Notes: generated by a model from the sequence alone, not told the origin. A DNA stretch of 43,010 nucleotides from Parcubacteria group bacterium (GCA_014383885.1 JACNGX010000021.1:1-43010); one strand, 5' to 3'. Shown: positions 1,797-43,010, counted from the first letter of the stretch. Translations and numbers: made by a program.

Positions 1797-1805
1797 TACA
1801 ATCCG

Positions 1806-2702: not shown

Positions 2703-2749
2703 TACCCTGGTAGCTTATGGCTTATAGCTTTGAGCTTATAGGAAAGAAA

Positions 2750-4691: not shown

Positions 4692-4706
4692 GAATATACA
4701 AGGAGG

Positions 4707-4737
4707 TACGAAGTACGAACCCCTACGAACATACGAA
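4707..4737 (+). repeat. Full 31-nt tetra-hexamer motif TACGAA-g-TACGAA-cccc-TACGAA-ca-TACGAA.
   Basis: Read directly from the sequence. It begins 16 nt after the pilB stop codon. Confidence 0.8.
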
Positions 4738-4820
4738 TCTTGTTTCTTGAAAGAAAATTACTGTTATTCTGAATCAATTCCAGACTAACAGCAAAAGTGA
4801 GTGGTGAAGCAAAAGTCATG

Positions 4821-4834
4821 TTCGTATGTTCGTA
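4821..4834 (-). repeat. Partial motif in inverted orientation: TTCGTA-tg-TTCGTA, the exact reverse complement of 4724-4737.
   Basis: Read directly from the sequence. Confidence 0.8.
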
Positions 4835-5161
4835 TTGATTTGTAGTCCGTACCCCAACAAAAAAGAACGCATAATCCTCTAAACAAAACTTTAAGTAAAA
4901 ACACTGAAAGGAGAGTATACACTGAGGATAGTGTCAGCGCGTTCCACGTAAAGTGAAACACCAACACGTCCTTGCATATATTCCGTTATTTGTTTAGAGG
5001 ATTATACGTTCTTTTTGAATCCCGAATATACTGCTCGGGGGTGCAAAAGAAACGCCGCATCGACATGTGTGTTCGATTGCGGACGACTATTGAATATTCT
5101 TTTTTCAAGCATATATTCGAACGTCTCGAATGTATCAATATCCTATCATACTTGAAAAAAT

Positions 5162-6196
5162 ATGTCAACCCCTTCTCCAAAAAAGGATACCCCGCCCGAA
5201 AACACACACAAAGACGAGCAGGTCTTAGACACGACGCTCCGTCCGGTAACATGGAACGATTATATCGGGCAAGAACAGATCAAGAGCAATCTCCACATCC
5301 TTCTTTCGGCCGCAACCGAACGCAATCAAGCGCCCGAGCACCTTCTTTTTTACGGTCCTCCCGGACTGGGAAAAACAACGCTTGCTCACTTGATTGCCAA
5401 AGAAATGAATGCGCAGATGAAGAGCACTTCGGGGCCAGCAATTGAGAAGGTGGGTGATTTGGCGTCTATTCTTACCAATTTGTCTCCGGGAGACATTCTC
5501 TTTATTGACGAAATCCATCGACTCAATAAGCTCATTGAAGAAATTTTATACCCTGCAATGGAAACGGGCACGCTTGATATTATTATCGGTAAGGGTCCAT
5601 CGGCACGCACAATCCAGCTCGATCTTCCACCATTTACCCTGATTGCCGCAACTACGCGCATTTCACTTCTCTCTTCCCCGCTCCGTTCACGCTTCTCCGG
5701 CGGCACATTTCGTTTGGAGTTTTACACCGATGAAGAGATCGCTCGTATCGTAAAACGCTCGGCCGATATTCTCGGTATCGCCATGCCGTCTGAGGCGGCG
5801 GAAAAAATCGCCGGAAGAAGCCGGAAAACACCCCGAACTGCCAATTATCTCCTCAAACGATGTCGCGATTTTGCTCAGGTTCGCAAAAACTCTCTCAATG
5901 GAGAAGTGGTAAGCGGTGCGCTGGAACTTCTTGCAATCGATGAGCTTGGATTAAACGCCGGCGACCGCGCAATCCTCGATACACTCATTACGAAATTCGG
6001 CGGTGGACCGGTTGGTTTGAAAACAATCGCTGCGGCAATTTCCGAAGAGGAAAGCACTATTGAAGAAGTTCACGAACCATACCTTCTCCAGCTTGGGCTC
6101 ATCGACCGAACCCCCCGTGGACGCATTGCCACTGAAAAAGCATACCGCCATTTAGGACACAATATGCCGGAAGGTACACAGAATTCGTTGTTGTAA
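5162..6196 (+). CDS. ruvB: Holliday junction branch-migration helicase RuvB.
   Basis: 344 aa with GPPGLGKTT (Walker A), the LFIDEIHRL motif, and a typical RuvB C-terminal winged-helix region. Confidence 0.95.
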
Positions 6197-13224: not shown

Positions 13225-13485
13225 ATATGATTATCCCCAAGGGTGTTTTGTATATTATTAAATAAAATTATTATTATTATAAGTACAGTGGAAAAGTGGA
13301 AAGATGAAAATCTTTATACATAGTAAGGATTGAATAGGAATATGTGATGTGTATAAGAATAGTGTATAAAGCAGAAAAGTTTTTATTTGTGTATAAATAA
13401 CAATATCTATTTTCTTTTCCACATACTATTATATGTTTGTACACATAAATCTCCATAGATATTTCCAGATAGTTACCCACATGTT
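13225..13485. other. Candidate oriC region in the dnaA-dnaN intergenic spacer (AT-rich, with DnaA-box-like 9-mers).
   Basis: Five one-mismatch DnaA boxes: 13231-13239 TTATCCcCA, 13348-13356 TGTGtATAA, 13388-13396 TGTGtATAA, 13425-13433 TTtTCCACA, 13473-13481 TTAcCCACA. AT-rich tract at 13251-13290. Confidence 0.55.
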
Positions 13486-17507: not shown

Positions 17508-17545
17508 GAAAAAGGCGGCACCGGAGGTGCCGCCGTGTGTGTTTT
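17508..17545. terminator. Bidirectional intrinsic terminator.
   Basis: AAAAA GGCGGCACC gga GGTGCCGCC gtgtgtgTTTT. Confidence 0.6.
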
Positions 17546-17560
17546 CCCTAATTTTTAGTC

Positions 17561-18862
17561 TCAGTAATTCACAGTCTCAAATGCATCGGCAACGCGAAGA
17601 ATCCATGGTGTCATATCGCGTTTGTTAGTGAAGAGGAGAAAAGATTCATCTTCACTGAGAACAGGGTTGATGAGATCAATAGCTGTATCATACATATTCG
17701 GATCAACAAGGAAAAAGCCGATAGACTCTTCGGTGTCATAATACCAGATGCTGTCTTCAAAGAATAGTTCTCCTTTGTACCATGTGTCGGGGTATCGTGT
17801 GAAAGGAAGAGAAAATGGTACACCACAGTAGATTCCCTTCCCTTCTGCATCCCAGGTGCATTTCTCAGGAAGTGTATCAAAGAGAAGTGCAGTTTCTTCT
17901 CCATCGGAGAGGATTTTCAGTGTGAGTGTGTTTTCCGAACTTTCAGAGAAAAGTATTTTTGTGCCATCAGGACTTGTGAGCGTGGTAAGACCGCTAACAC
18001 CACTTAAGATTGGATTGAGCGTATTTGAGAAGAGAGAAAGATAATAGCTGTATCCTGGAATTCCCGCTGCAGGCTTTGTGGTGAGATAAATGTAGTCGTT
18101 TTCCGCCCAATCGATAAGCCACTCGGAAAGGGGCGAGGAAAATGCTTCTTTTGGTTCCTCACCGGAAAATGGTACGATAATACCGCGAGAGCCGCTTGTT
18201 GTACGTTCAAGGAGAAAAAGAGAGTCTTGAGTGGGGTTGGTGTCGAAAGCAAGGGTACCAGTGCGGAGGAACTCTGCTCGAGCAAGTCCAATATCACCGC
18301 CCTCTTCTTCCGCTGTGAAAATCGAAATTCCGGTTCCCTCAATAATATCATCGTCATTGAGTGTACGCGCAAAGAATTCCGTGCCGTCAGTATTCCAAAG
18401 CGTGTCATGGATGTGTGGTATGGTTGTATTGGTGATGCGTTCTGCCCCAAGTGTGTCTACAGGGATATCAAAAATATTTCCCGTTGCCTTTTCTATCACA
18501 CGGACAATGAGGATATTCTTTTCTTCCTCGGACCCTTCTGTTGATTGAGGGAGTGTTATAAACGTTGCCCCCGATACGGGCTCAGGGAATACTTGCGAAA
18601 TGAGATCGACGCTCAGTTGTTTTTCGTCGTCCTGTGGTGTTTTGTCAGGAGAGTCTCCATCTCTCTCTTCACTACCAAAGAGGGAGTCGAGCACACCCTC
18701 ACCTTCTGCGCCACTAAAGAGAAAACCAAAGAAGCCATTATCTCCCACCCCCTCAGAAGAGTTGCCACCGCGACCAAAGAGAAATATTCCAACACCAAGG
18801 AGAACGATGAGGAGAATAGTACCTCCCCAGATGAATATGCGTTTTTGCTGAGAACTATTCAT
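17561..18862 (-). CDS. Membrane-anchored hypothetical protein (N-terminal TM, an acidic linker, and a large extracytoplasmic domain).
   Basis: 433-aa ORF. N-terminus IFIWGGTILLIVLLGVGIFLF. First gene of the minus-strand block that contains the T4SS genes. Confidence 0.6.
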   Translation of the reverse strand: MNSSQQKRIFIWGGTILLIVLLGVGIFLFGRGGNSSEGVGDNGFFGFLFSGAEGEGVLDSLFGSEERDGDSPDKTPQDDEKQLSVDLISQVFPEPVSGATFITLPQSTEGSEEEKNILIVRVIEKATGNIFDIPVDTLGAERITNTTIPHIHDTLWNTDGTEFFARTLNDDDIIEGTGISIFTAEEEGGDIGLARAEFLRTGTLAFDTNPTQDSLFLLERTTSGSRGIIVPFSGEEPKEAFSSPLSEWLIDWAENDYIYLTTKPAAGIPGYSYYLSLFSNTLNPILSGVSGLTTLTSPDGTKILFSESSENTLTLKILSDGEETALLFDTLPEKCTWDAEGKGIYCGVPFSLPFTRYPDTWYKGELFFEDSIWYYDTEESIGFFLVDPNMYDTAIDLINPVLSEDESFLLFTNKRDMTPWILRVADAFETVNY

Positions 18863-18871
18863 ACTTATTGA

Positions 18872-19903
18872 TTATTGGAAAAATGTATTTTCGGTGTCTC
18901 CGAACGTAATGGACAATGTTTCTTTTAAGCTCTGTAGCATGCGATCGGTATACGTAACTGAGAGTGAAAGGGCCGTGTTTCCTGTTGTTCCTTCCGGCAC
19001 ATCGATTGCCAAATCACCCGGGTTGTTCCAGTGTGACGAGACATGTCTTCCTCCTACCGACCAGTCGTAGGAAAGAGATGAGCGATTGTGATTGTCTGTG
19101 GAGAAGAAATAGGGCTCAGCACGGATGACAGTTTCTCTTTCTCTAAGGAGGATACCATTGACAAGAGCTTCATTAAAGCGTACACCAAGCGTGGGATGTT
19201 CTTCATAAAATATAATTTCTGGATCGACCTCGGGAAGGTTAATAGATTCACGGGCGCTGAGTGATCCGCCCGGAGATGTGGCGGTGACAGACACGGTTTC
19301 ATTCGGTAGGAGAATATCTTTCATGAGAAGAAGTGTTGAGCGACCGTACCCAGATTGACTTTTTGTGTCGCGATAAAAACCATTACGCTGCCAAGTGTAG
19401 GTGATAGTGTCGGCATCGAGCTTTGTGCCATTTCCCGTTGTAAGGTGTGGAACAGCAATAACTTTTACGTGTGCCTGAGAAGCCGGTAGTGCTTTTCCAC
19501 GGTAAAAAGGCGGTGTGTAAGCATCAATCGCTTCCCAGAGCAAATCGACGCCTCCTCCAGGTGTAAAACGAACAGTTTTGGTAATTGTTTCATTATCCGG
19601 TGAGACGATTGTCGCGGAAATAGTCATGGTGATTCCGGTATTTCCAGCTTCGGTACTGAAGGTGTTGAGGCCTGTTCCTTCAGAACGATAGGCACCATTT
19701 TCATACCACGTAACATATGCGCGATTCATATCAAACGCGAAGCTTGATACTGAAACAGTGATCATCTCACCTGCCGCCGGATATGCCGGCTCAACATCAA
19801 CAGAGACATACGATTCAAGCGCGTGAACATGAGATATCACAGCACAGAGTGAGAGTGTGATACCACATATGAGAACTGACATGTGGAAAATAAAGGATTT
19901 CAT
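18872..19903 (-). CDS. Secreted hypothetical protein.
   Basis: Signal peptide MKSFIFHMSVLICGITLSLCAVISHVHA (start at 19903, 8 nt after the VirB4 stop). The ORF track extends artificially to 20086. Confidence 0.6.
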   Translation of the reverse strand: MKSFIFHMSVLICGITLSLCAVISHVHALESYVSVDVEPAYPAAGEMITVSVSSFAFDMNRAYVTWYENGAYRSEGTGLNTFSTEAGNTGITMTISATIVSPDNETITKTVRFTPGGGVDLLWEAIDAYTPPFYRGKALPASQAHVKVIAVPHLTTGNGTKLDADTITYTWQRNGFYRDTKSQSGYGRSTLLLMKDILLPNETVSVTATSPGGSLSARESINLPEVDPEIIFYEEHPTLGVRFNEALVNGILLRERETVIRAEPYFFSTDNHNRSSLSYDWSVGGRHVSSHWNNPGDLAIDVPEGTTGNTALSLSVTYTDRMLQSLKETLSITFGDTENTFFQ

Positions 19904-19910
19904 AGAACTA

Positions 19911-21776
19911 TTATACCACGCCAGCGATACGGGAGAGTGGATTATCCGGCGTTTCATTCTCACTGCTTTCTTTAAGTGCTTTCTTTGCTTCACGAATCTG
20001 GAGTATTTGTGAGGGGTCCGAGGTAATGATTTGTTCTTCAGTGTAAGAAGCGAGGATTTTAATGGCGACATGCTTGAGTCCTGCAAAGAAGATACCTTCT
20101 CCTACATCGGATTCGAGAAGTAAGAATTTTTCCTCCTCAGTGAGGTTGAATGTTTTTTGGACGGTGTCGATGGCTGTGGGCGATTGTTTCAAGAGAAGCT
20201 GAATTGAAGAGTTGGTGATGATCGGTAAACCATACGGCGACCGGAGGAAATCGGACACGTCTTGGGTGATGGTGGCGACTCCTAGATAGTATTTTCTACC
20301 GCGCTTTGTCATGCCGAAGAGAAATGATGCCGTATCTTCGGATTTCATCATCCACCACGCCTCGTCGATCACAAGAAGGCGTTTTTTCAGCTCGCGACGA
20401 ACGGCATTCCAGATAAAGTGGGTAATGATGTGCATGGCGACGGTTTTAAGTTCGTCTTCCATGTCGCGAACGGAGAAGACCACAAACTTTTTGTTGATAT
20501 TTATGTTGGTTGGACGGTTAATGAATTCCGCCCACGTTCCTTTCGTATATTTTGAAAGACGACTTAAGAGAGATTCCCCCCCTTCCATGCCGGAGAGGAC
20601 CATTTCAAAGTCGGAAAGAAGTGGTGGGACAATTTGTGAGAGATCTGAATCAGGAGTGATGTCTTTGAGTGCATATGTTTCCGTGATAGCACGGTCAATA
20701 ATGGAGTCTTCTTCAGGGGAAAGACCGCCAAGCATGATGCGGAAAAGACCGACGAGTGAAATGGTATTTGCACGGAGGACGTCAGCAGTTGTCTCATCTT
20801 CGCTCGGCATAGGAAGATCGAACGGATTGATATGGTGTGGGGAGCTGAGTGAAATATTGAAATGGCGACCACCTGTAGCCTCTGCCATAAATTCATATTC
20901 ACGTTCAGGGTCAATTACGATTACTTCCGTATCAAACATGAGAGTACGGAGAATTTCAAGCTTGGTGGAGAAGGACTTTCCGGCGCCAGAAGTGGCAAAA
21001 ATGACGGAATTATAGTTTTCCATTGAGAAGCGATCGAAAAGAACAAGACTGTAATTGTGTCGATTGATGCCATAGAGAATGCCGCGGTCGGATGTGAGGT
21101 TGAAGGAAATAAAAGGAAATATGCTTGAAAGCGGTGAAGAATTGAGTTTTGAGTGAATGCCGAGCGAGTCGGATCCGGAAGGAATGACGCTTTTGAACGC
21201 GTCTTCTTGCTGAAAAAGACTTGGCTTGAGATAGACAAGCTTTGATTCAAGAATTGATTTGATTTCCGATTCAATACGATCAAGTTCTTCTTCTGTTTTT
21301 CCGTAGACGGTGATATAGAGACCAACGTCAAAGAGACGCTCTTGCGCCTGTTGAAGCTGATCGCGGAGGTTTTCAAGATTGGCATATGCGGCAGCAAGCT
21401 TCGGGTCACGCACCATGCCACGCTCCTCACGCATCATGATTTGGCTTTCAACCTCAGCAACTTTCTTTTGGAATTTGCGCAAAATAGCCGCGGTGTCCAC
21501 CGGGTGAATATGGATGGAGACGTCGAAGACAGCGTCGAGATTCACAATCGGCGAGAACCAGCTGTCGGCGAGATAACGTGGGTAGGAGATGACGAAGAAT
21601 GTGCGAGCGATACGGTCGCCTAAATTGAGTTCGCGCGGAGTGATTTTGAGCGCCGAAGGAGCGATGACATCTTTTAATTCCAATACTGCCGATTCATATA
21701 TTTCATGTGGTAATACAGGCACCGCCTCCGGGGTGTCTTTTTTCTTCCCTATTCCTAATGTGTTAAGAAGTGACAT
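19911..21776 (-). CDS. virB4: VirB4/TraE/PrgJ-type conjugative T4SS ATPase (core portion).
   Basis: Walker A FATSGAGKSF, Walker B LVIDEAWWMM, and the Gram-positive VirB4 N-terminal signature LGDRIARTFFVISYPRYLADSWFSPIVNLDAVFDVSIHIHPVD. First ATG at 21776. The frame remains open up to 21839. Confidence 0.85.
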   Translation of the reverse strand: MSLLNTLGIGKKKDTPEAVPVLPHEIYESAVLELKDVIAPSALKITPRELNLGDRIARTFFVISYPRYLADSWFSPIVNLDAVFDVSIHIHPVDTAAILRKFQKKVAEVESQIMMREERGMVRDPKLAAAYANLENLRDQLQQAQERLFDVGLYITVYGKTEEELDRIESEIKSILESKLVYLKPSLFQQEDAFKSVIPSGSDSLGIHSKLNSSPLSSIFPFISFNLTSDRGILYGINRHNYSLVLFDRFSMENYNSVIFATSGAGKSFSTKLEILRTLMFDTEVIVIDPEREYEFMAEATGGRHFNISLSSPHHINPFDLPMPSEDETTADVLRANTISLVGLFRIMLGGLSPEEDSIIDRAITETYALKDITPDSDLSQIVPPLLSDFEMVLSGMEGGESLLSRLSKYTKGTWAEFINRPTNININKKFVVFSVRDMEDELKTVAMHIITHFIWNAVRRELKKRLLVIDEAWWMMKSEDTASFLFGMTKRGRKYYLGVATITQDVSDFLRSPYGLPIITNSSIQLLLKQSPTAIDTVQKTFNLTEEEKFLLLESDVGEGIFFAGLKHVAIKILASYTEEQIITSDPSQILQIREAKKALKESSENETPDNPLSRIAGVV

Positions 21777-21780
21777 AGTG

Positions 21781-22431
21781 TTATAGTTGAATCGGCTTAT
21801 CAAGTTCGCCGGGATTAAATATGCGGTAAAAAAGTTCAATCAATTCTTCCGTACCCAGAGGCGATGTGCGGATACCGGTACGGACAAGTCCTTGTTGTAC
21901 GACATAGGCACGCTGTTCAAGCTGGGAGCGATTTACTTCAAATTCATCCTGCTCTTTATCCTCCCCTCTCGAGCGCTTTTTCTTCGTTCCTAAAACATCG
22001 CCAAGAATGCCTGTGTCGGTTGCAATGAACGAAGGGGTGTATGGGACGACGATGAAAAAGTTCTTTGACATGATATTAGTCTGTTCGGTAAATGTTTTAA
22101 TGAAGCGAATGTATTCGCGAATCTGTACTTTTGAGAGGTCGTTTATCTGCTCTTTTTCGCGCCGTTCGAGAAGCGCGACATAGGGGCGAACGTCATATCG
22201 TCGAGATTGGATGTAGATTTGTACCGAGAAGTCAAGCGAGTTGAGAAAGTTTTGAAATTGAATGAGAATAGATTGCTGTTCGTCGGGAGACTTAAGCGAC
22301 ATATTCACCGATGATGTCATGAGTACCATCTTGAGCGAACCGTCTTCCATCACCGCCACACCGTCTCGTACCTCTTTGATAGGCACGAATCGTTGTGATG
22401 CTTGTGATTTTTCTTTGTTTGATGTTGGCAT
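21781..22431 (-). CDS. VirB4 N-terminal-extension-like protein. It is a separate ORF; VirB4 may be split or frameshifted here.
   Basis: FVPIKEVRDGVAVMEDGSLKMVLMTSSVNMSLKSPDEQQSILIQFQNFLNSLDFSVQIYIQS resembles the N-terminal extension of long Gram-positive VirB4 proteins. Its stop codon lies 4 nt from the virB4 ATG. The two frames overlap across the A6 run at 21828-21833. Confidence 0.55.
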   Translation of the reverse strand: MPTSNKEKSQASQRFVPIKEVRDGVAVMEDGSLKMVLMTSSVNMSLKSPDEQQSILIQFQNFLNSLDFSVQIYIQSRRYDVRPYVALLERREKEQINDLSKVQIREYIRFIKTFTEQTNIMSKNFFIVVPYTPSFIATDTGILGDVLGTKKKRSRGEDKEQDEFEVNRSQLEQRAYVVQQGLVRTGIRTSPLGTEELIELFYRIFNPGELDKPIQL

Positions 22432-22446
22432 GGTGCTAATAATAGC

Positions 22447-22866
22447 TTACTGAACGTTCTTTTGCACATCCAAACTCCAGGCAATATCTTTGAGTTTGCT
22501 CTGTGAGAGTGATGGCACGTGCATCGTCTCCGGTAAGGGGGCAGGTTCCTGAACAGCGGCTTTTTTCTGAGCCTCTTTCTTTTTCCATTCCTGGCTCCAA
22601 ATGTAGAGCTTTGCGCGCGTTACATATAAAAAAGCGGCCTCCAAAACATCAATAAAAGGTCGCTTGTGTATTTTCAGAAACGCAAGCGCAATACCCAAGC
22701 TCGCAATGGGAAGAATGAGGAGTATGGCGAAGAAAAAAGGAAGTGATGCATACAAGACATATGAGATACCTGCAGCACCGGCCAAATAGAGAAATTGGCG
22801 AAACGAGAGAGCTCCGGCAAAGACCTTATCTTCAACTTCAATGAATTGTGGTGTTTGGAATTGCAT
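22447..22866 (-). CDS. PrgI/VirB3-like small two-TM T4SS protein.
   Basis: N-terminus MQFQTPQFIEVEDKVFAGALSFRQFLYLAGAAG, followed by two hydrophobic helices. Confidence 0.65.
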   Translation of the reverse strand: MQFQTPQFIEVEDKVFAGALSFRQFLYLAGAAGISYVLYASLPFFFAILLILPIASLGIALAFLKIHKRPFIDVLEAAFLYVTRAKLYIWSQEWKKKEAQKKAAVQEPAPLPETMHVPSLSQSKLKDIAWSLDVQKNVQ

Positions 22867-22939
22867 AGTTGAGTCGCAAGCTTTGAGCGCTGGTATCTAC
22901 AATACTAGCCGGCGCGCTACCGCGCGCCTCACTCCTCTT

Positions 22940-23599
22940 TTACTCCACCGGTTCACGATACGGATCAGGCGGAGTTTCCGGAGACGGTGAGGGAGCGGTG
23001 TTGGATTTTGTTTCCTCGCTATGCGCTTCTCTGAGAGTTGTTTCTTGGGTTATTTTTTTCTCAATAATACTTTGGTGAGTAGTCTCCTGTTTCTCTGCTC
23101 CCATATACTCTTGTTTTTGGGGAGCTCCAGGTAGGGATACTTCCTTTTTCGGTCGGGTCTCTTCACGTTCTGGTATGGGAAGAGGATGTTCAATTTCTCG
23201 TAAAATTTCATCGCGTGTCGGTAAGTGCATTGTCATTTCCTCATCTTTTTCTTCTCCCGCGACATTTTCTTTGGGGGCACTGAGAGATGCACGCATTGGC
23301 TCAAGAATCTCAGTATTCACATCAGCGAGAATTGCTTCAGCTGCTTCTTCGGAAACACCAAGCTCTTCAGAAAGCGTCGGGAGATATGACTCCCTTGGAA
23401 TAAGTCCAAGTATCACAAAGACGGTTATGTCATTGAGTGTAGCCAACTGATCGATGTGGAGATTGTGGTGATTTCCGATACGACGAAGCGCCTTCCCTGT
23501 TTCTTGAGATTCAAGAACTTCTTGTATTGCTTTAGGAAGAGCAGTGAAGCGATCCTCCATCTGTTGTTGTGTGAATTGTTGCATAGATACCAAAGACAA
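22940..23599 (-). CDS. Hypothetical bitopic protein (one TM helix and an acidic, low-complexity C-terminus).
   Basis: ORF within the T4SS block. TM segment ITVFVILGLI. Confidence 0.5.
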   Translation of the reverse strand: MSLVSMQQFTQQQMEDRFTALPKAIQEVLESQETGKALRRIGNHHNLHIDQLATLNDITVFVILGLIPRESYLPTLSEELGVSEEAAEAILADVNTEILEPMRASLSAPKENVAGEEKDEEMTMHLPTRDEILREIEHPLPIPEREETRPKKEVSLPGAPQKQEYMGAEKQETTHQSIIEKKITQETTLREAHSEETKSNTAPSPSPETPPDPYREPVE

Positions 23600-23605
23600 T
23601 AATGA

Positions 23606-26149
23606 TTATGTATTAGTATTTTTTTCTGTCGCTTTTGTCGTGTTTTTTGCTACGTTGGAAATATCTTCACGCGCGTATCTGTTTTGCTTTTCAGCGAGTC
23701 TTGTGTATTCCTTCAACTCTCCCATTTTCTTTTCTTGCCGCGAGGAAAGCTTACTGAGTGTTTCAAAGTTTGAAAGGCTTTGCGCGTGCTTTGATTCAAG
23801 ACTCGCGAGTTCTTGATTCTGTGCGCTTGATCGGTTGGGAACAGCAGAGAGCGCTCCGTTTTGTTGGACAAGTTTATTTTCTCGCTTTTCTTCAAGTTTC
23901 ATGAGCACGGCGATTTTACCAAGCGTTGTATTGAGCTGATCCATCTGTGTTTGAGCTTGTTGGGGTGTGCCATATGTTTTCTTCATAGAGTCAATCCTTG
24001 CTTTATCACGAGCTTTCTCTGCTTCGACATTTGCTCGCTTCTCTCTCAGTTCGTCACCCTTTTTAATCGCCGAACCAGTCTTTTGAGCGGCTTGCGCTTT
24101 GGCTATTGTTTTCGCCGATGCTACTCCTCTAGCGGCACGATCCAACGCTTGCTTCTTTGCCTCCTTCTCAACGTCTCTCATCTCTTCCTGTGCGGCGTCA
24201 TAATCCTCATGTCCTTGCGAAACACGCTTCAATGATTGGTAATACGGATTATTTGTCAGTGCCTCATTTGTGGTACCCGTTACTCCACTTTCTTTCAAGA
24301 GACGCTCTTCATATCGTGTATGTGCTTTTCGCGCCGCAGCTGCTTTTGTTTCATCTTTATCATTAAGGTCGCCCATCTTCTTTCTGAGCTCATCTTGTTT
24401 TTTATCTTCTCGCTCTACAGTACCGGCAAATCCTCCTTCGCCGCCCTTCACTCCCCATGCGCCGACAGATTTCGTGACCCCACCCATGCCAACAGCCCCG
24501 GCAAGACCACCTGCTTTACCCATTGCCATGCCGCCGAGCTTTGTGTTTCGCGCGTCAAAACTCCCCTTTTCCATGCCTTCCATAGCGCGCAAGCGGAGGC
24601 GATCAAGTTTCCCTCCGGAAGCAAGGCGCTGGCGCCGTGTCATGCCATCGGAGCCGACACGATTTAAATTCTTCATTGCGCCGGCACCCAAGACTCCGCG
24701 CCCGAGAAGCGCTGTGCCACCTGTCGCCACAGCAGCACCAAGCCCAACTGCCGCTCCGGCAATACCGGCGATTTTTTTGCCAATATCAAGCGATACTCCC
24801 CCAATTGAATCACACATTTTCTTGGTAATATTTTTTGCGTAGAAGAGGATGGCGGTGAGTACGGTGAATTTCAATAGGACGATGATAAATGTCTCAAAGA
24901 AATCTTTGTTATTTCCGAAATTATTCCAGGTATTGGCCCCTTCCAAAAATTGCAAGGTAAACCACAAGAGGAAGAGAAAGACGGTAATACAAAATGATTT
25001 GCTCACGAGCTCTCCCCAGAAATTTTTTCTTACGTATGCTGCGGATTGTGGCAAAATCATACCAACAAAGGCAAGCGGTGAAACAGCCATAAGAAGCCAC
25101 AGAATGGCAACACGAGTGAGAAAGAGAAACGATGTTGTGAAAAGTATCCACGCAAGCACACCCATAAGGGAGGCGCTCAGAAGAAAATAGATTATAAGAT
25201 TGAAATGTTGCGTTTCCGGAGGAACTACCTGGTCGGTCCATAGTTTCAACCAGGTGCCTCCTTTCGCTTTCACCAGCCCATTTTCAAGAGATATCATTTC
25301 ATTGATACTGGTGTAGTGCAAGAAAGCCCCCGACACCCCCTTTACATCACCTTCTCCAATCCATTGTTCGATAAACGTTCCTTTCAGTACTGAATTGCCC
25401 GATATAAGCTTTTCACCATCTTTCACATTTTGGGTTTTGTGTACTTCAAAGTCGTTGTAGAAAAACATAGCAAACATGTTTCCAGCATCCACAATGACAC
25501 GAGTGATGAAAAAACTAAAATTAATCAAAAGGGCAACGATAATGAGTTTGGAAAGAAGATCTTTGGCTGTATTGTTTCTAACACGTAAAATAGTAGCAAT
25601 TGCAACCCACAGCAATATAAAAATAAATGCCATGTTTGCCAAGTCGCGGACATTTTCCCATACTGTTTTTATAAACTCCTGATCAATAAGCCCTCTACTG
25701 ATAGAAAGAAGCAAGACTATGTCAAAGAAGTTGCCGATTGCTCCCAGAATAAAGGATGCCGGCATGTAGAGGAGATAATATGTCCCCACCGCGAGACATC
25801 CGGTGAAGCCAGGCGCCCCCTTCATGAGATTACATTTCATGTAATCGGTGATGTCGGGTTTATTATCTGCGCTAGATTTTTGTTTATCATAATAGTCTTG
25901 AGCAGCGCCATCCCCAGGACTGCCCGGCGAGCTTGTTGAGCGCACTGGGCGTTTCGGTACCTTTTGTGATATGCTGATATCGCGTATTGATGGTTGAGCA
26001 TACGCTTTGTTTTGCGAAAGAGAAGGGAGGTTTTTTTGAGAATTAGGTTGTGAAAAAGAAAATGGAGCAAGCAAAAGAAATGCAATAATAAAAGACACGA
26101 CTTTCGTTTGGATTTTCTTTTTTGTATGGGGGGTGAACTCTAATCTCAT
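23606..26149 (-). CDS. VirB6/TrbL-like polytopic membrane protein with a C-terminal Gly-rich plus coiled-coil extension of about 380 aa.
   Basis: Signal-like N-terminus, at least 8 hydrophobic helices, then a GAAVGLGAAVATGGTALLGRGVLGAGA... segment and a charged coiled-coil tail. The start at 26149 (MRLEF) is preferred because the upstream ATG at 26185 lies inside a terminator hairpin. Confidence 0.6.
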   Translation of the reverse strand: MRLEFTPHTKKKIQTKVVSFIIAFLLLAPFSFSQPNSQKNLPSLSQNKAYAQPSIRDISISQKVPKRPVRSTSSPGSPGDGAAQDYYDKQKSSADNKPDITDYMKCNLMKGAPGFTGCLAVGTYYLLYMPASFILGAIGNFFDIVLLLSISRGLIDQEFIKTVWENVRDLANMAFIFILLWVAIATILRVRNNTAKDLLSKLIIVALLINFSFFITRVIVDAGNMFAMFFYNDFEVHKTQNVKDGEKLISGNSVLKGTFIEQWIGEGDVKGVSGAFLHYTSINEMISLENGLVKAKGGTWLKLWTDQVVPPETQHFNLIIYFLLSASLMGVLAWILFTTSFLFLTRVAILWLLMAVSPLAFVGMILPQSAAYVRKNFWGELVSKSFCITVFLFLLWFTLQFLEGANTWNNFGNNKDFFETFIIVLLKFTVLTAILFYAKNITKKMCDSIGGVSLDIGKKIAGIAGAAVGLGAAVATGGTALLGRGVLGAGAMKNLNRVGSDGMTRRQRLASGGKLDRLRLRAMEGMEKGSFDARNTKLGGMAMGKAGGLAGAVGMGGVTKSVGAWGVKGGEGGFAGTVEREDKKQDELRKKMGDLNDKDETKAAAARKAHTRYEERLLKESGVTGTTNEALTNNPYYQSLKRVSQGHEDYDAAQEEMRDVEKEAKKQALDRAARGVASAKTIAKAQAAQKTGSAIKKGDELREKRANVEAEKARDKARIDSMKKTYGTPQQAQTQMDQLNTTLGKIAVLMKLEEKRENKLVQQNGALSAVPNRSSAQNQELASLESKHAQSLSNFETLSKLSSRQEKKMGELKEYTRLAEKQNRYAREDISNVAKNTTKATEKNTNT

Positions 26150-26164
26150 AGCACTATTATAACA

Positions 26165-26198
26165 GAAAAAACACGCCTTCTGCATAGGTGAAGGCGTG
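26165..26198 (-). terminator. Intrinsic terminator after the lipoprotein gene.
   Basis: CACGCCTTC (9-nt loop) GAAGGCGTG, followed on the minus strand by TTTTTT. Confidence 0.5.
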
Positions 26199-26208
26199 TG
26201 TATAGCAA

Positions 26209-26778
26209 TTACCTCTTTTGGGAGTTAATAAACTCCCTAGTCTCGTCGGGGAGGAACATAAGTCTCCCCTTTATTGCCGGGATGAAATCTCCCGGCCATG
26301 CACCTGTATAGATCGCCACGAGGCAGCGATCTATAAGTGTGTATTTTAGCGCCGCATACTTATCATTCGGCGCTATATATATTTTATGCAGATTCTCTCT
26401 TGCCTTAGTAAGAGAGAATCTGCCATTCTTGTTGTGCTCCGCTGTGCGGAGCATCTTAAAAATGTATTCACTCCACCCGTCCAACTCTTCATACCCCACA
26501 ACGGAGTATGAAGAGGTGAGCGTCTCGTGCGAGATGCTCGCTACGGTAATCTCCTCACGCACTTTAAGTGCGCGAGTGATGTACTTTAGATGCTCTTCCC
26601 ATTCGGGAATAGCGGTTTGTACCTCAAACATGGCGATTACTTCTTCGCCATATTTCTCTTCCAGCGTCGGTTCCGGCGTAAGTATCGGACCGACGGGATT
26701 TTTCTCGTCGTTTATGCACCCCGTCAGAAAGAACGGGATGGTGATGGCGAGCAACAAAAGTATTTTTCTCATTTTCAT
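26209..26778 (-). CDS. Lipoprotein (lipobox LTGC).
   Basis: MKMRKILLLLAITIPFFLTGCINDEK. The ORF track starts further upstream at 26931, but that extension covers the promoter. Confidence 0.7.
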   Translation of the reverse strand: MKMRKILLLLAITIPFFLTGCINDEKNPVGPILTPEPTLEEKYGEEVIAMFEVQTAIPEWEEHLKYITRALKVREEITVASISHETLTSSYSVVGYEELDGWSEYIFKMLRTAEHNKNGRFSLTKARENLHKIYIAPNDKYAALKYTLIDRCLVAIYTGAWPGDFIPAIKGRLMFLPDETREFINSQKR

Positions 26779-26857
26779 TTTTTTCTCCGTTTTGAGGCGG
26801 CGGCGTGAGCCGCCGCCTGGTTTATTTGTACAAGTACAAGATAATTTATTCTGCTTA

Positions 26858-26886
26858 TATATTAAACCAAAAACCTGTTTTGTCAA
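26858..26886 (-). promoter_or_regulatory. Promoter TTGACA-N17-AATATA (minus strand) for the lipoprotein/T4SS operon, with a GGCGGCGGC-tcac-GCCGCCGCC hairpin in the leader.
   Basis: The reverse complement reads cctATTGACAaaacaggtttttggtttAATATA. A perfect DnaA box TGTGGATAA lies at 26905-26913, just upstream of the -35. Confidence 0.45.
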
Positions 26887-26930
26887 TAGGATGTTTTGAG
26901 AGGGTGTGGATAACTTTGTCCTCAAAAACA

Positions 26931-26966
26931 CTAAAAACGCCCTTTTCAGGGCGTTTTTAGTGTTTT
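26931..26966. terminator. Bidirectional intrinsic terminator.
   Basis: AAAAACGCCC ttttca GGGCGTTTTT. Confidence 0.6.
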
Positions 26967-26978
26967 TGAGAGTTGCTT

Positions 26979-28466
26979 CTATTCTTCAGCGTCTCCTTGT
27001 TGTGTGCCAAGATGCTGCAGAATTACTTGTACGTTGTTGTATGTTTCGTTGATACGACCGACAACGTTCTCGACATCAGACTTTGTTTGAAGAGCGAGAG
27101 CGCGGGAATAGGTGTCGATTGGCTCGTGAAGATTATTGAAGTTTGAATAGAGAGGAATGATCTCGGATGGAGTGTCGGCACTGAGTGCTTGCGTGTGGAG
27201 AGATGTAAGCGAAGAGAAGTATGTATCGGTAATGTTGGATGTCTCAATGAGTGCTTGAACGGATGAGAGATCGTCGATTGAGTCTTCAATTTCACGCTGG
27301 AGAGAGGTGAGCCCTGTGCGGGTAATGATTACGACATCACCGGAATCAACAATGACTGATATACCGCGATCGTCCATATAATCAAGAATATCATCGATTT
27401 CGGAAATAGTGAGTGTGCCTGTGGTGATACCCTCCTGCACCATTTCACCAAGAGTGAGTACGTCATCTGAAAGAGCAAGTTCCGCTTCGATAATGTCGAT
27501 AAGCTCTTGATCTACACCAACAACTTGCTGAAATCCGCCACCACTCCCCGATCCGGATGAGCCACCGCCTGCAAGCGATGAGATGCCGTCGGAAATAAGG
27601 CTCATGACGAGATTTTGAATCATACTTGCCAGGAATTCCTCGATTTCATCGGCGTTTTCAAGACTTTCAAGAGGACTGCCAAGCGCATCGGAAAGTGTGT
27701 TCGTGATGAATTGCCCGGGAGTGAGACGTTCCCAGCGAGCACAGCCATCGTCGGCGTTGACGACACCATCGAGATTTTTATCGACACCGACCGACTCAAG
27801 GCATTTTCCGGGAAGAGAGAGGAGCCCGCCGCTTTGCTCAAGCTCAGACTTAACATTCCCAAGAGCATTTTCAACCTGGCGAGCGTGTTCTTCGGCTGCC
27901 ATGAACCCTTGACCGATAGCGCTGTTTTCCGGCATGACAGTGTGAGCAAGAAAACCTGTCCAACCACCACCTTCAAAAAAGCCGTCCTCGAACGCATCAG
28001 GATTGATAAGGATATCTTCAAGAGAACTCTTGGCATATTCTGAATATGGCGTGTAGCTTTGCGAGAGAAGCTTGAGGATCTCGGTTTTAATTGGCCCGTA
28101 AATATCCGCATTGCTTACTTCGCTCATGAATGCCGTGGTCACATCGCGTGAGAGTTTGGCGAAGAAGGCGTCGGGGTCGGTGATGAGAAGCTCATCGCCG
28201 AAAAAGCCCGAATTGATGAAAGAGCGAAGGTCGCCAATAATATCTCCCACGAGCATTTTAGCGACTTTCCATGCGATGCCGTCGAGACCGAGCTCTTTGG
28301 GAAGAATGGTTCTGTCACGTGTAATGTCTTTGAGTACAATCACCGCATCACCTGCTCCGAAGAGTGCATGGGCGGGAGCCGGACGTGCGATAATGCCACC
28401 AAACATAAAGAGTGGAACGAGGATGCCGAGTGTGAGTGTGCGAAGGTGTGAAAGGTGAAACGTCAT
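26979..28466 (-). CDS. Secreted hypothetical protein (495 aa).
   Basis: Signal peptide MTFHLSHLRTLTLGILVPLFMFGGIIARPAPAHA. Acidic. Contains a GGGSSGSGSGGG linker. Confidence 0.6.
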   Translation of the reverse strand: MTFHLSHLRTLTLGILVPLFMFGGIIARPAPAHALFGAGDAVIVLKDITRDRTILPKELGLDGIAWKVAKMLVGDIIGDLRSFINSGFFGDELLITDPDAFFAKLSRDVTTAFMSEVSNADIYGPIKTEILKLLSQSYTPYSEYAKSSLEDILINPDAFEDGFFEGGGWTGFLAHTVMPENSAIGQGFMAAEEHARQVENALGNVKSELEQSGGLLSLPGKCLESVGVDKNLDGVVNADDGCARWERLTPGQFITNTLSDALGSPLESLENADEIEEFLASMIQNLVMSLISDGISSLAGGGSSGSGSGGGFQQVVGVDQELIDIIEAELALSDDVLTLGEMVQEGITTGTLTISEIDDILDYMDDRGISVIVDSGDVVIITRTGLTSLQREIEDSIDDLSSVQALIETSNITDTYFSSLTSLHTQALSADTPSEIIPLYSNFNNLHEPIDTYSRALALQTKSDVENVVGRINETYNNVQVILQHLGTQQGDAEE

Positions 28467-28490
28467 AGGTGTGCGGATAATGAATAATAA

Positions 28491-29480
28491 CTAGAGGGCA
28501 AACATGCTACCTACCTCACTCTCTGAAAAGGTAAGTGAAGCATCGGATAAAATACCAACAAGCGACTGCGCCGCGTATTCCATGCGGGTAAGTGACGTTT
28601 GGTATGTGGTGAGTCCGGTGAGGCCGATGACGGTATCGTCGGACATGTCGTGAATGTAGGTGAGTGACATGGCCATCGTTTGAAGAGTGTTAAGGATTTC
28701 GAGATGAGTATCAATAAGAGTGGAAGGTACGGAAAGCGCAAAGAGTGCATCGTGCATGTCGGTAAAGAAGGTGATGAAGCGTTTCAAATCCGAGAGACGC
28801 GATAAATTGCCACTTTCGATTGCATCGGTAATAATAGCGACTTCATAGGGAGCGCCCAGCTCATCGTAAGCGAGAATGAATGATGCAAGTGTGTTGGCGT
28901 ATGTGCGCAGGAGCGTGGAGCTTTCGGTAATAGTGTCAACAACAATATCTTCTTCCGTGTAAGTGTTTTGAGGAATATTTTGAGCGACTTCATTACTGAT
29001 GATGTCTTCAAGAACAGAAATGTCTTCAATCGTTGGATTTCCTTCGGTGCCGATGTGATACAAATGACTCATAAACGTACGAGAGACAGCGTCGGAGCGC
29101 GTACTCCCTCCTTCCCCCGCGGCTTCATCTGAGGGAACAATGGGATATGCCTCAAGTGTGTCGTCAACGGCGTTTACAAGCGGATTACGACGCGCGGCGA
29201 TTTCAATACCGTCTCCGGTGCCGTCGCCGTCGGAATCGGCGACATTTGGATTGGTTCCCCAGAGAGCTTCTTCCCAATTAGAAAGACCGTCTAAATCGGT
29301 GTCTTCCGTGCCAAGTGAGATTTTCTCTCGTTCTTCATCAGTGATGACAAGAAGTGGCTCGGTGTCGATCGGTCTTTCTTTCGGACGAGTAAATGAATAC
29401 ACAGCTATACCGATAACAGCAATGAGAGCGACGGCAAGCACAAAGCGACTACTGGGGAGATAGTGAGTGATATGTTGCAT
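28491..29480 (-). CDS. Membrane-anchored hypothetical protein with a thrombospondin-type-3-like calcium-binding Asp repeat.
   Basis: N-terminal TM helix FVLAVALIAVIGIAVYSF and the repeat DTDLDGLSNWEEALWGTNPNVADSDGDGTGDG. Confidence 0.55.
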   Translation of the reverse strand: MQHITHYLPSSRFVLAVALIAVIGIAVYSFTRPKERPIDTEPLLVITDEEREKISLGTEDTDLDGLSNWEEALWGTNPNVADSDGDGTGDGIEIAARRNPLVNAVDDTLEAYPIVPSDEAAGEGGSTRSDAVSRTFMSHLYHIGTEGNPTIEDISVLEDIISNEVAQNIPQNTYTEEDIVVDTITESSTLLRTYANTLASFILAYDELGAPYEVAIITDAIESGNLSRLSDLKRFITFFTDMHDALFALSVPSTLIDTHLEILNTLQTMAMSLTYIHDMSDDTVIGLTGLTTYQTSLTRMEYAAQSLVGILSDASLTFSESEVGSMFAL

Positions 29481-38988: not shown

Positions 38989-40305
38989 ATGGAAGAAACA
39001 ATTATTTCTTGGTCTCCCTCAGAGGGAGACGATAGGCGTCTCCAGGAAGAAAAAAACAAGAGAGATTTTTGGAGGAATGTATGGGTGGCGAACGGAATCA
39101 TCTTTGCCATTGCCGTTCTTGCGATACTCTTTTCCCCTTCAATCACTCTTGAATATCTCAACAACGAAGGAGAGAAGATGTTCGTTCCAGTATGGAATTG
39201 GGGGTGGTTTCTTCTTGCGATGCAGTTTTTGTATTCCGTCGCGTACCCTCTCCTACCACTTTTTTGGGAGAGAGGAGAAGTTGAAATTCCAGAGGAGCTC
39301 CTAAAGGGGGCTATGAATCTTAATGAGACGGAAGAGAAAAGGGAAGAAAGGAAAAATGCCGGTATTCTCACCGTTAAGGAATACGAGATTGAGAGGATGC
39401 GATGGAAGTCGGAGAAATATCCTACAGTTCCTTCGGAAACGTATGGGATGTTGACGTTTATGGATGCACTTTTATTTCCGCTTCCTGATGGACTTGCTTA
39501 CATCCCTCCATTTTTTGGTATCAAGAGGGATACTAAAAAGATTGTGCAGTTTGAACTCCCTCCTAGTGAGCTGATTTATTGGGGAAGCGGTGACGTTCCA
39601 GAAGGGATGTATGCTCCTCTTCGCTTTGGACAGGTGGGTAAACCTTCAAAAGTAGAAGCTGAGGAAAACAATCCGCTTAGCAATAATCAGACGACGGATG
39701 GAAGCATCCAGGCGCGAATCCGTATTGACGGCAAGAGTCTGTACGAGTATTTCACCACTATCGGTACTCTGAAAAATGCCGAGAAGATGATACTTGATGC
39801 TATGGTGAGTAAGGTGCAGGCAATTCTGGGCAAGAAGACTCCTCTCTGGACAAAAAGAAACTTCGACAAGGTCAATGAGGAAATCACAAGGGCTTTGCAT
39901 AAGTTCGTTGTAGGGTGGGGTGTTGTTGCACTCGATGTGTACCTTGTTAATTATGACTATAGTCATGAGACAAACAAGAGTATGCGGGGTGTTGTTGTTG
40001 CTGAGTTTGAGAGAAAAGCGACAGTTACCAGGGCGGAAGGAGAGCGAGAGAAGCGCATGCTTGAAGGTCAAGGCCAGGCAGATGCTGATAAAGCGATTGG
40101 TGACGCGAAGACCGACGTGCTAGTTAAGAGGACGGAAGAACTCGATGTAACCGGCGCTGAAGTGCTCGGCGCAGAGACCGCTGGTGATGTTGCGAAGAAT
40201 GTGGAAGACCTGACTGTTCTTGGAGAGAACGTTGGTTCTGATACGTTCAAGTTCGGCAAACTCTTTGACCAAGGAGCAAAGTCAAACAAGGGAGGTAAGA
40301 AGTGA
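38989..40305 (+). CDS. SPFH/band-7 (stomatin/flotillin/HflKC-like) membrane protein.
   Basis: N-terminal TM helices. A band-7-like core with a characteristic Ala/Glu-rich coiled-coil tail (ERKATVTRAEGEREKRMLEGQGQADADKAIGDAK). Confidence 0.6.
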   Translation: MEETIISWSPSEGDDRRLQEEKNKRDFWRNVWVANGIIFAIAVLAILFSPSITLEYLNNEGEKMFVPVWNWGWFLLAMQFLYSVAYPLLPLFWERGEVEIPEELLKGAMNLNETEEKREERKNAGILTVKEYEIERMRWKSEKYPTVPSETYGMLTFMDALLFPLPDGLAYIPPFFGIKRDTKKIVQFELPPSELIYWGSGDVPEGMYAPLRFGQVGKPSKVEAEENNPLSNNQTTDGSIQARIRIDGKSLYEYFTTIGTLKNAEKMILDAMVSKVQAILGKKTPLWTKRNFDKVNEEITRALHKFVVGWGVVALDVYLVNYDYSHETNKSMRGVVVAEFERKATVTRAEGEREKRMLEGQGQADADKAIGDAKTDVLVKRTEELDVTGAEVLGAETAGDVAKNVEDLTVLGENVGSDTFKFGKLFDQGAKSNKGGKK

Positions 40306-40793
40306 ATGATTTTGTCATGACAAACCTTCCTGCGCTGATACCGCTCTTTCTGGTGCTTGCGGTGTCCTCACTCCTCCTTTTTTTAGGAGGGAGGAAAAAT
40401 GGTACGAAGAAAAAATCTGACGACGCGAAGACTGCGAAGAGGAAGTGGGGTGATAGTATTGCCCGTCTTTATAAAAAGACAGGGCTTCCCTATTTCTTTG
40501 GGACGAGGGTAACCAAGTTCCAGAAGGTGGGGGTGAATGTGGCAATATTCGCTTTTTTGTTTGCGGGTATTTACCATGTTTATCCCGAGATATGGGAAAC
40601 ATATCTCGTCGAACACCTGCCCTGGAAGATGGCTGCCGCCGTTGTCGCCAGCTATGTGCTGGTACGGAAGTATGATGGCGATGAGGGGTTCAATGTGTAT
40701 GAGAACCGCCTCTTTGACATACTGACGTGGGGGCTCGGCGTTGGGGTAGTCGCATTCGTTGCGAGCGCCCTGCGCAGTTGCGTGGGACTGTAG
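40302..40793 (+). CDS. Small membrane protein whose start overlaps the stop of the SPFH gene (putative SPFH partner).
   Basis: ATGA overlap and three hydrophobic segments. Confidence 0.5.
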   Translation: MNDFVMTNLPALIPLFLVLAVSSLLLFLGGRKNGTKKKSDDAKTAKRKWGDSIARLYKKTGLPYFFGTRVTKFQKVGVNVAIFAFLFAGIYHVYPEIWETYLVEHLPWKMAAAVVASYVLVRKYDGDEGFNVYENRLFDILTWGLGVGVVAFVASALRSCVGL

Positions 40794-40903: not shown

Positions 40904-41164
40904 CGCTCTATTGATAGAAACGGATGAATTGACGCGCCCGAAGCATATACTCACCGAACCGACCCAAAACGGCTTCGTTGAGCCATATAATTCGGATTCC
41001 GAACGACAGACACTCCCTCGGAATAGCTTGAAAACCCTTGAAATACGGCATATTACGCTTGTATGAAGAGGACGGAAGAGCTCTTTCCCTTACGGCTTAT
41101 CATACCCTCAATACAAGATCCTGACAGTTTTCTCGTTATTGCAAGTCAGGTGAATATACTGTAT

Positions 41165-42834: not shown

Positions 42835-42998
42835 GCTCCCCTCACCTTTAAATACGAAGACATGTGGTACACTTGCCACTCCCCACCTTTAAATACGAAG
42901 ACATGTGGTACACTTGCCACTCCCCACCTTTAAATACGAAGACATGTGGTACACTTGCCACTCCCCACCTTTAAATACGAAGACATGTGGTACACTTG
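42835..42998. repeat. Tandem direct repeat of 4 x 41 bp (CACTCCCCACCTTTAAATACGAAGACATGTGGTACACTTGC).
   Basis: Perfect 41-bp periodicity at 42845, 42886, 42927 and 42968. The first and last units are slightly divergent. There are no unique spacers. Confidence 0.85.
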
Positions 42999-43010
42999 TC
43001 ACATATGGCG

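Follow-up and report, generated by a model that had tools for sequence, protein, structure and literature searches.

A probable vertically inherited type IV secretion locus of Paceibacteria and its class-wide accessory gene set

Introduction

Patescibacteria possess type IV secretion systems (T4SSs) whose VirB4 proteins form a monophyletic clade nested in MPF-FATA, as reported from 3035 genomes by Quinonero-Coronel et al. (2025, Microb Genom; PMC12102498). In that survey TrsD, PrgI and VirB6 are encoded near virB4, relaxases occur in only 103 of the 3035 genomes, 99.3% of VirB4 nearest neighbours come from the same class, and the T4SS of Paceibacteria lies close to dnaA, dnaN, rnpA, ksgA and rpmH (PMC12102498). 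Here we analyze a locus of this kind, a ten-gene block at positions 17561-29480 of a 43,010-nucleotide stretch from a Parcubacteria group bacterium (GCA_014383885.1, JACNGX010000021.1:1-43010). That whole stretch is called the window below, and an original prediction made from its sequence alone had proposed that the block is a resident apparatus rather than a conjugative element.

Experimental evidence comes from the saccharibacterium Southlakia epibionticum ML1, which cannot grow as an epibiont without its T4SS cluster SEML1_0006-0019 (Wang et al. 2023, Cell; PMC10633639). A 2025 review lists the Patescibacteria systems as a new T4SS group (PMC12857230), and a 2024 perspective, in which effector delivery and DNA uptake are both mentioned, calls their function completely unknown (PMC11665869). 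The idea of a resident, relaxase-less T4SS, including its oriC/ksgA/rnpA context, is already published (PMC10633639 for Saccharibacteria; PMC12102498). The main text of PMC12102498 has no TSP3 and leaves the other accessory genes unnamed, and grey in its Fig. 6 marks genes without Pfam, NCBIfam or TIGRFAM matches.

We conclude, with a probability of roughly 0.8, that the block is a vertically inherited chromosomal T4SS of Paceibacteria (Yonathbacteria-like), derived from monoderm MPF-FATA conjugation machinery and serving no mobile element. New here are predicted features of three accessory proteins, namely TolB-like blades in T433, three Ig-like domains in S343 and variable distal domains in S495, as well as a lineage without a VirB2-like pilin gene in cis and with a fast-evolving lipoprotein.

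Results

Composition of the block

The block consists of ten intact open reading frames (ORFs), every one on the minus strand, given here from first gene to last (TM, transmembrane; the basis of the assignment in brackets where given).

28491..29480, minus strand: TSP3, 329 aa, with an N-terminal TM anchor and Asp repeats; first gene of the conserved block
26979..28466, minus strand: S495, 495 aa, secreted or anchored (family alignments, AlphaFold)
26209..26778, minus strand: lineage-specific lipoprotein, 189 aa (lipobox LTG-C read from the sequence)
23606..26185, minus strand: VirB6/TrbL-like polytopic channel protein, 859 aa (family profile, relatives, predicted fold)
22940..23584, minus strand: p219, soluble, 214 aa, or 219 aa from the longest-ORF start (family alignment, no TM-like window)
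22447..22866, minus strand: PrgI/VirB3-like small membrane protein, 139 aa (PF12666, TM-like window)
21781..22431, minus strand: TrsD-like protein, 216 aa, the VirB4 N-terminal domain as a separate gene (VirB4 N-terminal profile positions, TrsD)
19911..21776, minus strand: VirB4-family ATPase, 621 aa (conju_CD1110 profile; Walker A GAGKS, Walker B LLVIDEAW)
18872..19903, minus strand: S343, secreted, 343 aa (signal-peptide-like N-terminus, three Ig-like repeats)
17561..18862, minus strand: T433, 433 aa, with an N-terminal TM anchor and TolB/PD40-type blades; last gene of the block

These ORFs fill 17561-29480 in the unidirectional gene order originally predicted. Spacers inside the block measure 4-24 bp, except for 73 bp between p219 and PrgI and 200 bp at 26779-26978. 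One flank carries dnaN(-), dnaA(-), rnpA(+), yidD(+), yidC(+) and jag(+) and the other DUF192(-), ksgA(-), an SBF transporter and uvrD, which agrees with the predicted position between jag and DUF192-ksgA. Start codons differ from the longest-ORF starts in four genes, and the corrected starts are likely at 21776 (VirB4), 19903 (the 343-aa secreted protein), 26778 (lipoprotein) and 23584 (the 214-aa protein).

Comparative results below refer to 85 related loci, picked through the 80 species representatives most similar by VirB4, in which ORFs were called and each family was tracked with hidden Markov models (HMMs).

Comparison with described systems

The block resembles the Patescibacteria-clade T4SS (PMC12102498) in its MPF-FATA VirB4, TrsD-like neighbour, PrgI/VirB3 and VirB6, in the lack of a relaxase or type IV coupling protein (T4CP) gene near virB4, and in its location beside dnaA, dnaN, rnpA and ksgA. 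It differs in that this lineage has no VirB2-like pilin gene near virB4 and adds the fast-evolving lipoprotein. With the S. epibionticum ML1 cluster it shares the order VirB6 - PrgI - TrsD-like - VirB4, a location near the chromosome start, the lack of a recognised coupling protein or relaxase, and an exported Ig-like protein just beyond VirB4. Unlike this block, the ML1 cluster also contains a tandem array of six pilin genes, as well as lysozyme/peptidase genes and genes for two large VirB6-like proteins; essentiality has been shown for that cluster whereas we infer it for this one.

The plasmid modules of pGO1, pSK41 and pIP501 (TrsC/TrsD/TrsE; MPF-FATA) likewise encode a separate small VirB4 N-domain protein (TrsD/TraD) upstream of the ATPase and a VirB3-like small membrane protein, and have no outer-membrane core complex. 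Unlike the present block they are plasmid-borne, transfer DNA and possess a relaxase, a T4CP, a VirB1-type hydrolase and VirB8-like proteins; none of these four components was found in our scans of the block or the window.

The motor: VirB4, a TrsD-like protein and PrgI

The VirB4 ATPase scores 372.8 bits against NCBIfam conju_CD1110, the Gram-positive CD1110 VirB4 family (curated cutoff 325), and matches Pfam P-loop_TraG (9.8e-26); Walker A and Walker B read intact in the translation. It has >8000 homologues and is 73-97% identical across Paceibacteria, with its nearest homologues all from metagenome-assembled genomes of Patescibacteria. The lineages with the closest VirB4 are Yonath-, Kaiser-, Lloyd-, Campbell-, Nomura-, Taylor-, Wolfe-, Adler- and Zambryskiibacteria.

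Upstream of VirB4, in a different frame and 4 nt apart, lies the ORF at 21781-22431. Among NCBIfam profiles it matches VirB4_plasma at positions 97-233 (7.4e-11), CD1110 at positions 4-118 and TrsD (NF041427, 3e-4), and its orthologues bear PF26593 TraC-like. This split between TrsD and VirB4 occurs in 82 of the 85 related loci, and VirB4 homologues are all ~600-650 aa; since the split is the rule in relatives, we regard it as two genes and not as a frameshift error. PrgI scores 36.9 bits against PF12666 (cutoff 27) and has a TM-like window at aa 31-68. TrsD-like genes are present in 82 loci and PrgI in 74. The assignments of VirB4, a VirB4 N-extension ORF and PrgI/VirB3 in the original prediction are thus all upheld by profile matches.

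In several loci (L003 8539-8898, L004 8141-8506, L007, L010 and L058), a gene for a ~120-aa four-helix bundle is inserted between p219 and PrgI. It belongs to the "23S rRNA-intervening-sequence protein" family PF05635, with an additional weak bAvd match in L003, and no gene of this type is present in the window.

A VirB6-like channel protein

The 859-aa protein has ~7 TM helices in aa 127-487, seen as eight TM-like windows in the sequence and as seven long helices in the AlphaFold model, followed by a Gly-rich segment and a charged coiled-coil tail (aa ~470-859). Alone it has no Pfam match at E ≤ 0.1. A profile of 32 family members matches TrwI/VirB6 of plasmid R388 (7o3v_F) at E=3e-5, and PF04610 TrbL is matched by 12 of 32 relatives. 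The AlphaFold model of residues 1-520 reached a mean predicted local distance difference test score (pLDDT) of 71.7 overall and >90 in the TM core, and its top four Foldseek matches in the PDB are all R388 TrwI chains, at weak values (E ~0.1, TM-score 0.31-0.41). Family profile and predicted fold together support a VirB6-like identity at the family level, in line with the VirB6/TrbL protein with a Gly-rich/coiled-coil tail that had been proposed.

Its family profile aligns to residues 106-335 of R388 TrwI/VirB6 (PDB 7o3v, 8rt9, 8rtd). Compared with TrwI, the protein is ~2.5 times longer, adding a Ser/Pro-rich N-terminal region, a ~90-aa loop (aa 245-325) and the ~390-aa Gly-rich/coiled-coil tail, and, in contrast to R388, no VirB5 partner was recognised beside it.

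A conserved chromosomal slot

Nearly every complete locus keeps the order (uvrD)-ksgA-(variable)-TSP3-S495-VirB6-p219-PrgI-TrsD-VirB4-(small membrane protein)-S343-(pilin-like)-T433-jag-yidC-rnpA-dnaA-dnaN. A nine-gene core is found between ksgA and jag-yidC-rnpA-dnaA in about 60 Paceibacteria species, with the same gene order and the same chromosomal slot in the nine Paceibacteria lineages named above.

When the ten genes of the block and the remaining large ORFs in the 43-kb window were scanned against Pfam and NCBIfam, no relaxase, VirD4/TcpA or integrase was detected, as the original prediction had stated. The window contains 0 tRNA genes and no att-like direct repeats bracketing the block, only short chance repeats inside coding sequence; the G+C content of the block matches that of its flanks, with no shift.

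A conserved motor and divergent envelope components

We determined median identities to the window proteins across 44-80 Paceibacteria species per protein. VirB4 was the most conserved at 75.6%, a value somewhat inflated because the loci were picked by VirB4 similarity, and was followed by TrsD (57%), DnaA (55%), PrgI (46%), KsgA and DnaN (45%) and YidC (38.5%). S343, p219, T433, VirB6, S495 and TSP3 all lie at 25-30% (TSP3 24.8%). The same gradient appears against the closest relative, L001, in which housekeeping proteins are 86-90% identical, S495 38%, VirB6 35% and TSP3 45%.

In comparisons with the two closest genomes, every gene shows saturation at synonymous sites (proportion of synonymous differences, pS, 0.54-0.87). 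VirB4 nevertheless remains 96-97% identical (non-synonymous divergence, dN, 0.015-0.026; pS 0.61-0.66), and dN/dS is ~0.012-0.019 for VirB4 and TrsD. Saturated synonymous sites combined with so conserved a VirB4 argue for long vertical descent under strong purifying selection and not for recent transfer. Together with the shared gene order and the lack of tRNA, att repeats and G+C shift, this saturation supports the earlier view of a resident, non-conjugative apparatus.

The envelope parts have dN values of 0.19-0.68 against the closest genomes and diverge 10-45 times faster than VirB4 at non-synonymous sites. Positive selection on these genes was considered and rejected as a claim, pairwise dN/dS being uninformative at saturated synonymous sites; for the same reason diversifying and relaxed selection are not separable here. 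A frozen cytoplasmic motor with a fast-changing exposed surface fits a host-facing machine.

Envelope and secreted proteins

TSP3 combines a TM-like window (aa 7-33), calcium-binding thrombospondin-type-3 Asp repeats (aa 55-97) and a ~200-aa C-terminal domain. Its repeat scores 25.2 bits against PF18884, just at the threshold (cutoff 25), and the family profile matches the repeat region of Bap (7c7r, E=8e-4). The TM-anchored, TSP3-like Asp-repeat protein of the original prediction is therefore recovered, and 54-57 loci have an orthologue at the equivalent position.

S495 has a conserved N-terminal domain (aa ~60-300) with the Cys pair C222/C242, a Gly/Ser linker and a C-terminal helical bundle, the last modelled by AlphaFold from an 11-sequence alignment at pLDDT ~90 (aa 320-494). 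Foldseek searches of the PDB with this bundle returned only generic helical bundles (E ≥ 0.1) and no significant fold match. The protein has no significant PDB sequence match and no Pfam or NCBIfam family match, and a VirB5-like or other named identity was accordingly rejected. Among its orthologues, F5/8 type C (discoidin) domains occur in 6 of 42 and Ig-like domains in two to three, and one matches DUF4141 (1.3e-5). As its C-terminal domain is swapped between species, S495 may be a distal, host-specific element, and may be the best candidate for a species-specific one. A T433-like propeller in the C-terminus of eight S495 orthologues proved to be an iterated-HMM artefact: a clean T433 HMM matches only the N-terminal 50-100 residues (anchor region) of these eight.

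A 100% identical S495 is deposited at NCBI as H8D63_00915, "Parcubacteria group bacterium", and this match and the nearest VirB4 homologues both place the organism in the Patescibacteria. In L086, a TARA scaffold from a close marine relative with a 95.7% identical VirB4, TSP3 and S495 were not found within 10 kb upstream of VirB4, and positions 1-5500 encode in their place a histone deacetylase-like protein, a Peptidase_S51 and a 452-aa unknown. A 77% identical S495 homologue (P0205) lies on a 144038-bp contig of the same size as the L086 scaffold.

S343 begins with a signal-peptide-like N-terminus, as expected of the secreted protein predicted downstream of VirB4, and contains three Ig-like beta-sandwich repeats, each with a W-x-x-NG motif; the threefold repeat is evident in the alignment consensus. 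Its profile matches Hoc (3shs, E=2e-4), its orthologues match BiPBP_C, Ig_3, TIG and PKD, and the gene is found in 76 loci.

T433, predicted as a TM-anchored extracytoplasmic protein, has a TM-like window at aa 7-35 that agrees with this topology, and orthologues in about 65-70 loci. Positions 188-316 of its family profile, a stretch of ~120 positions corresponding to two to three blades, match 12 TolB sequences (E=2.8e-5 to 1e-3), and 3 of 46 orthologues match PD40. These profile matches point to TolB/PD40-type beta-propeller blades in the predicted extracytoplasmic domain.

The lipoprotein was also anticipated, and its LTGC lipobox is present. Lipoproteins at the same position in L001, L006 and L086 are 149-178 aa long and keep the lipobox at an identity of just 17-22%; the gene is absent from the remaining loci of the related set.

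Of the five accessory proteins TSP3, S495, p219, S343 and T433, four have no significant Pfam match. All but one of the five "unknown" envelope proteins recur class-wide as positional orthologues, and these four are therefore best regarded as structural or accessory parts and not as cargo. Of the two roles originally offered for the secreted unknowns, structural components or effectors, the structural or accessory one therefore holds for these four, and the lipoprotein is confined to its lineage.

p219 and its DPYREP tail

In p219, a conserved helical N-domain of ~100 aa is joined through a disordered Pro/Glu-rich linker, which varies in length, to an invariant DPYREP motif at the C-terminus. 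The position of p219 between VirB6 and PrgI is constant. The original prediction of a bitopic protein did not hold, as the sequence contains no TM-like window and the protein looks soluble. Among the ORFs of the loci the motif is confined to the p219 family, with 60 occurrences at the C-terminus.

In a library of 1.84 billion proteins the family has at least 2949 cluster representatives at E ≤ 1e-3; 100 of the best 150 matches end in the motif and eight have a TM-like window. Neither a Pfam family nor a PDB relative was found, and a literature search on the DPYRE motif returned nothing relevant. Speculatively, p219 may act as an adaptor in the cytoplasm, or may be a substrate whose C-terminal motif is the recognition signal. 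Many family members (proteins P0213-P0362) have two or three tandem ~100-aa N-domains, and the C-terminal variants include DPYRE, DPYHE, DPYRL, DPYRM and DPYLE.

A variant without a pilin gene

Between S343 and T433, 55 of 62 complete related loci carry a gene with a signal peptide, a Y-x-PL-x-PLP motif and two TM helices, which is a VirB2-like pilin; one copy has a weak PF18895 match. A small protein with two to three TM helices is encoded after VirB4 in 38 of the 62. The pilin-like HMM gave no match at E ≤ 10 on any window ORF of at least 40 aa, and the small membrane protein is not encoded in the 43-kb window. The Yonathbacteria-like loci L001, L002 and L006 also have neither gene and carry the lipoprotein instead. 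A VirB2-like pilin near virB4 is frequent but not universal, being present in 1135 of 1948 assemblies (PMC12102498).

Noncoding features and flanking regions

Two noncoding features stand out.

26779..26978, minus strand: 200-bp intergenic gap, the sole long one in the block, with a promoter-like site, a DnaA box and a G+C-rich hairpin
17514..17534, no strand: bidirectional intrinsic-terminator hairpin with a 9-bp stem (8 G-C pairs), between the convergent T433 and jag genes

The terminator hairpin marks the 3' end of the block. The gap holds the best-scoring promoter-like site (26886-26859) and a G+C-rich hairpin (26795-26818), although promoter-like sites overall do not exceed the shuffled-sequence level (25 found vs 19 ± 3.9 expected). 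Just upstream of that site lies a perfect DnaA box, TTATCCACA, at 26905-26913; the only other one in the window is at 14917, at the 5' end of the dnaA ORF. No DnaA box was found at the position of 26905 in related loci, and four other loci have a perfect box upstream of TSP3. With the 26905 box lacking a counterpart at that position, control of the block by DnaA was rejected as a claim.

Six DnaA-box-like sites with one mismatch are grouped at 13231-13481, in the AT-rich dnaA-dnaN intergenic region where cumulative GC skew reaches its minimum. This is the probable replication origin (oriC), and the cluster and skew minimum thus place the start of the block ~4 kb from it.

Several other features of the window were recorded. 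A protein with two LysM domains and Peptidase_M23 is encoded at 41063-42184 (+), 11.6 kb from the block. VirB1-like candidates in Patescibacteria frequently bear LysM/Peptidase_M23-type domains (PMC12102498), so this protein could be a wall-remodelling enzyme of the T4SS. A PilB/GspE-type ATPase (T2SSE 3.8e-109, MshEN domain) at 2988-4691 (+) belongs to type IV pilus machinery. At 38989-40793 (+), an SPFH/Band-7 gene (438 aa) overlaps by 4 nt the gene for a 163-aa membrane protein with no family match, and the pair looks like a two-gene unit. The low-complexity stretch 590-1440 holds two odd ORFs of doubtful coding status, a Thr/Ile/Met-rich one of 184 aa (-) and a His/Tyr-rich one (+), both without Pfam match, and a weak 12-bp tandem repeat at 1135-1173. 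The end of the window (42843-43002) is a near-perfect tandem repeat (41-bp unit, 3.9 copies, 99% matches), which is not CRISPR-like since whole units repeat with no spacers.

Discussion

A probable resident machine and how it may work

In the reading that we favour, a chromosomal T4SS passed on by vertical descent, VirB4 and TrsD would form a membrane-associated ATPase that docks via PrgI/VirB3 on the VirB6 platform and powers transport across a single membrane. PrgI/VirB3 and VirB6/TrbL would constitute the membrane translocon, as in known systems, and TSP3, S495, S343, T433 and the lipoprotein would build a wall-spanning, host-contacting part. The machine would mediate an obligate interaction with a host cell, by exporting effectors or importing host macromolecules, and would not conjugate its own DNA.

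A more specific but unlikely scenario goes further. TSP3, S495, S343 and T433 may together make up a structure, specific to Paceibacteria, that spans the wall, docks to the host and takes the place of the VirB8/VirB1/adhesin set of Gram-positive systems; p219, with its DPY[RH]E tail, may be either a universal translocated substrate or an adaptor that docks on VirB4/TrsD and substitutes for the missing coupling protein; and the Yonathbacteria-like variant, with a lipoprotein and no pilin gene, may work by direct envelope-to-envelope contact.

Several observations weigh against the resident T4SS as we describe it. None of the ten proteins has a Pfam or NCBIfam match to a VirB8-like protein (PrgL/TraM/TcpC) or a VirB1-like hydrolase, VirD4 homologues lie far from virB4 in most genomes (PMC12102498), and a coupling protein, relaxase or pilin could be encoded outside the 43 kb. 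The conservation of VirB4 is somewhat overstated by the choice of loci mentioned above, and the S495 N-domain reached a pLDDT <50, which yields no usable model. We infer the roles of TSP3, S495, S343, T433 and p219 from position, conservation and domain type alone. Transport direction and substrate are unknown even in cultivated Saccharibacteria (PMC11665869).

Alternative explanations

The alternative that survives best, although we consider it rather doubtful, bears on the direction of transport and not on the identity of the locus: the T4SS would run in reverse and take up host DNA or nucleotides, like Helicobacter pylori ComB or archaeal Ced, and so offset missing nucleotide biosynthesis. 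PMC11665869 raises this idea because S. epibionticum can do without competence (comEC) but not without the T4SS. It accords with the lack of a relaxase or T4CP in cis in our window scans and with weak NCBIfam matches of VirB4 to the import ATPases CedB (2.4e-8) and CedD. However, the CedB match spans only ~70 P-loop residues and scores 33 bits against a cutoff of 700, the block has no recognised ComB-specific or DNA-binding component, and no experiment in a Patescibacterium demonstrates import.

It is far less probable that the block is a remnant or cargo of an integrative conjugative element with integrase, relaxase and coupling protein outside the window. Such an origin would account for the homology of its components to monoderm conjugation machinery (conju_CD1110, TrsD, PrgI), and our inspection covered 43 kb only. 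Against it stand the same slot between universally conserved genes in about 60 species, the lack of any tRNA, direct repeat or G+C discontinuity, and synonymous sites as saturated in orthologous blocks as in the flanking housekeeping genes. The published class-level clustering of VirB4 neighbours and the rarity of relaxases (PMC12102498) point the same way.

Decay of the locus by pseudogenisation, with a split VirB4 and missing pilin, VirB8 and VirB1, is hardly credible: VirB4 is indeed encoded in two frames, and the pilin and small membrane protein of most relatives are absent, but the split is the norm among relatives with VirB4 homologues of the same length, dN/dS for VirB4 and TrsD is very low, and the ten ORFs are intact and tightly packed, with both Walker motifs preserved.

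Implications

Few machines have been shown to be essential for the epibiotic life of Patescibacteria, and the T4SS is among them. The resident T4SS described here leaves that picture unchanged, being another copy of a system described in 2023-2025. Its addition is modest: a class-wide accessory gene set is defined, with a domain-level description of each member, and a natural pilin-less variant and a large uncharacterised DPYRE-tail family are flagged. p219 and the accessory proteins are leads worth recording, as targets for complex structure prediction, pull-downs and cryo-electron tomography in the few cultivable relatives. The ATPase varies less than DnaA, whereas the envelope parts diverge fast, as expected of a host-facing surface.

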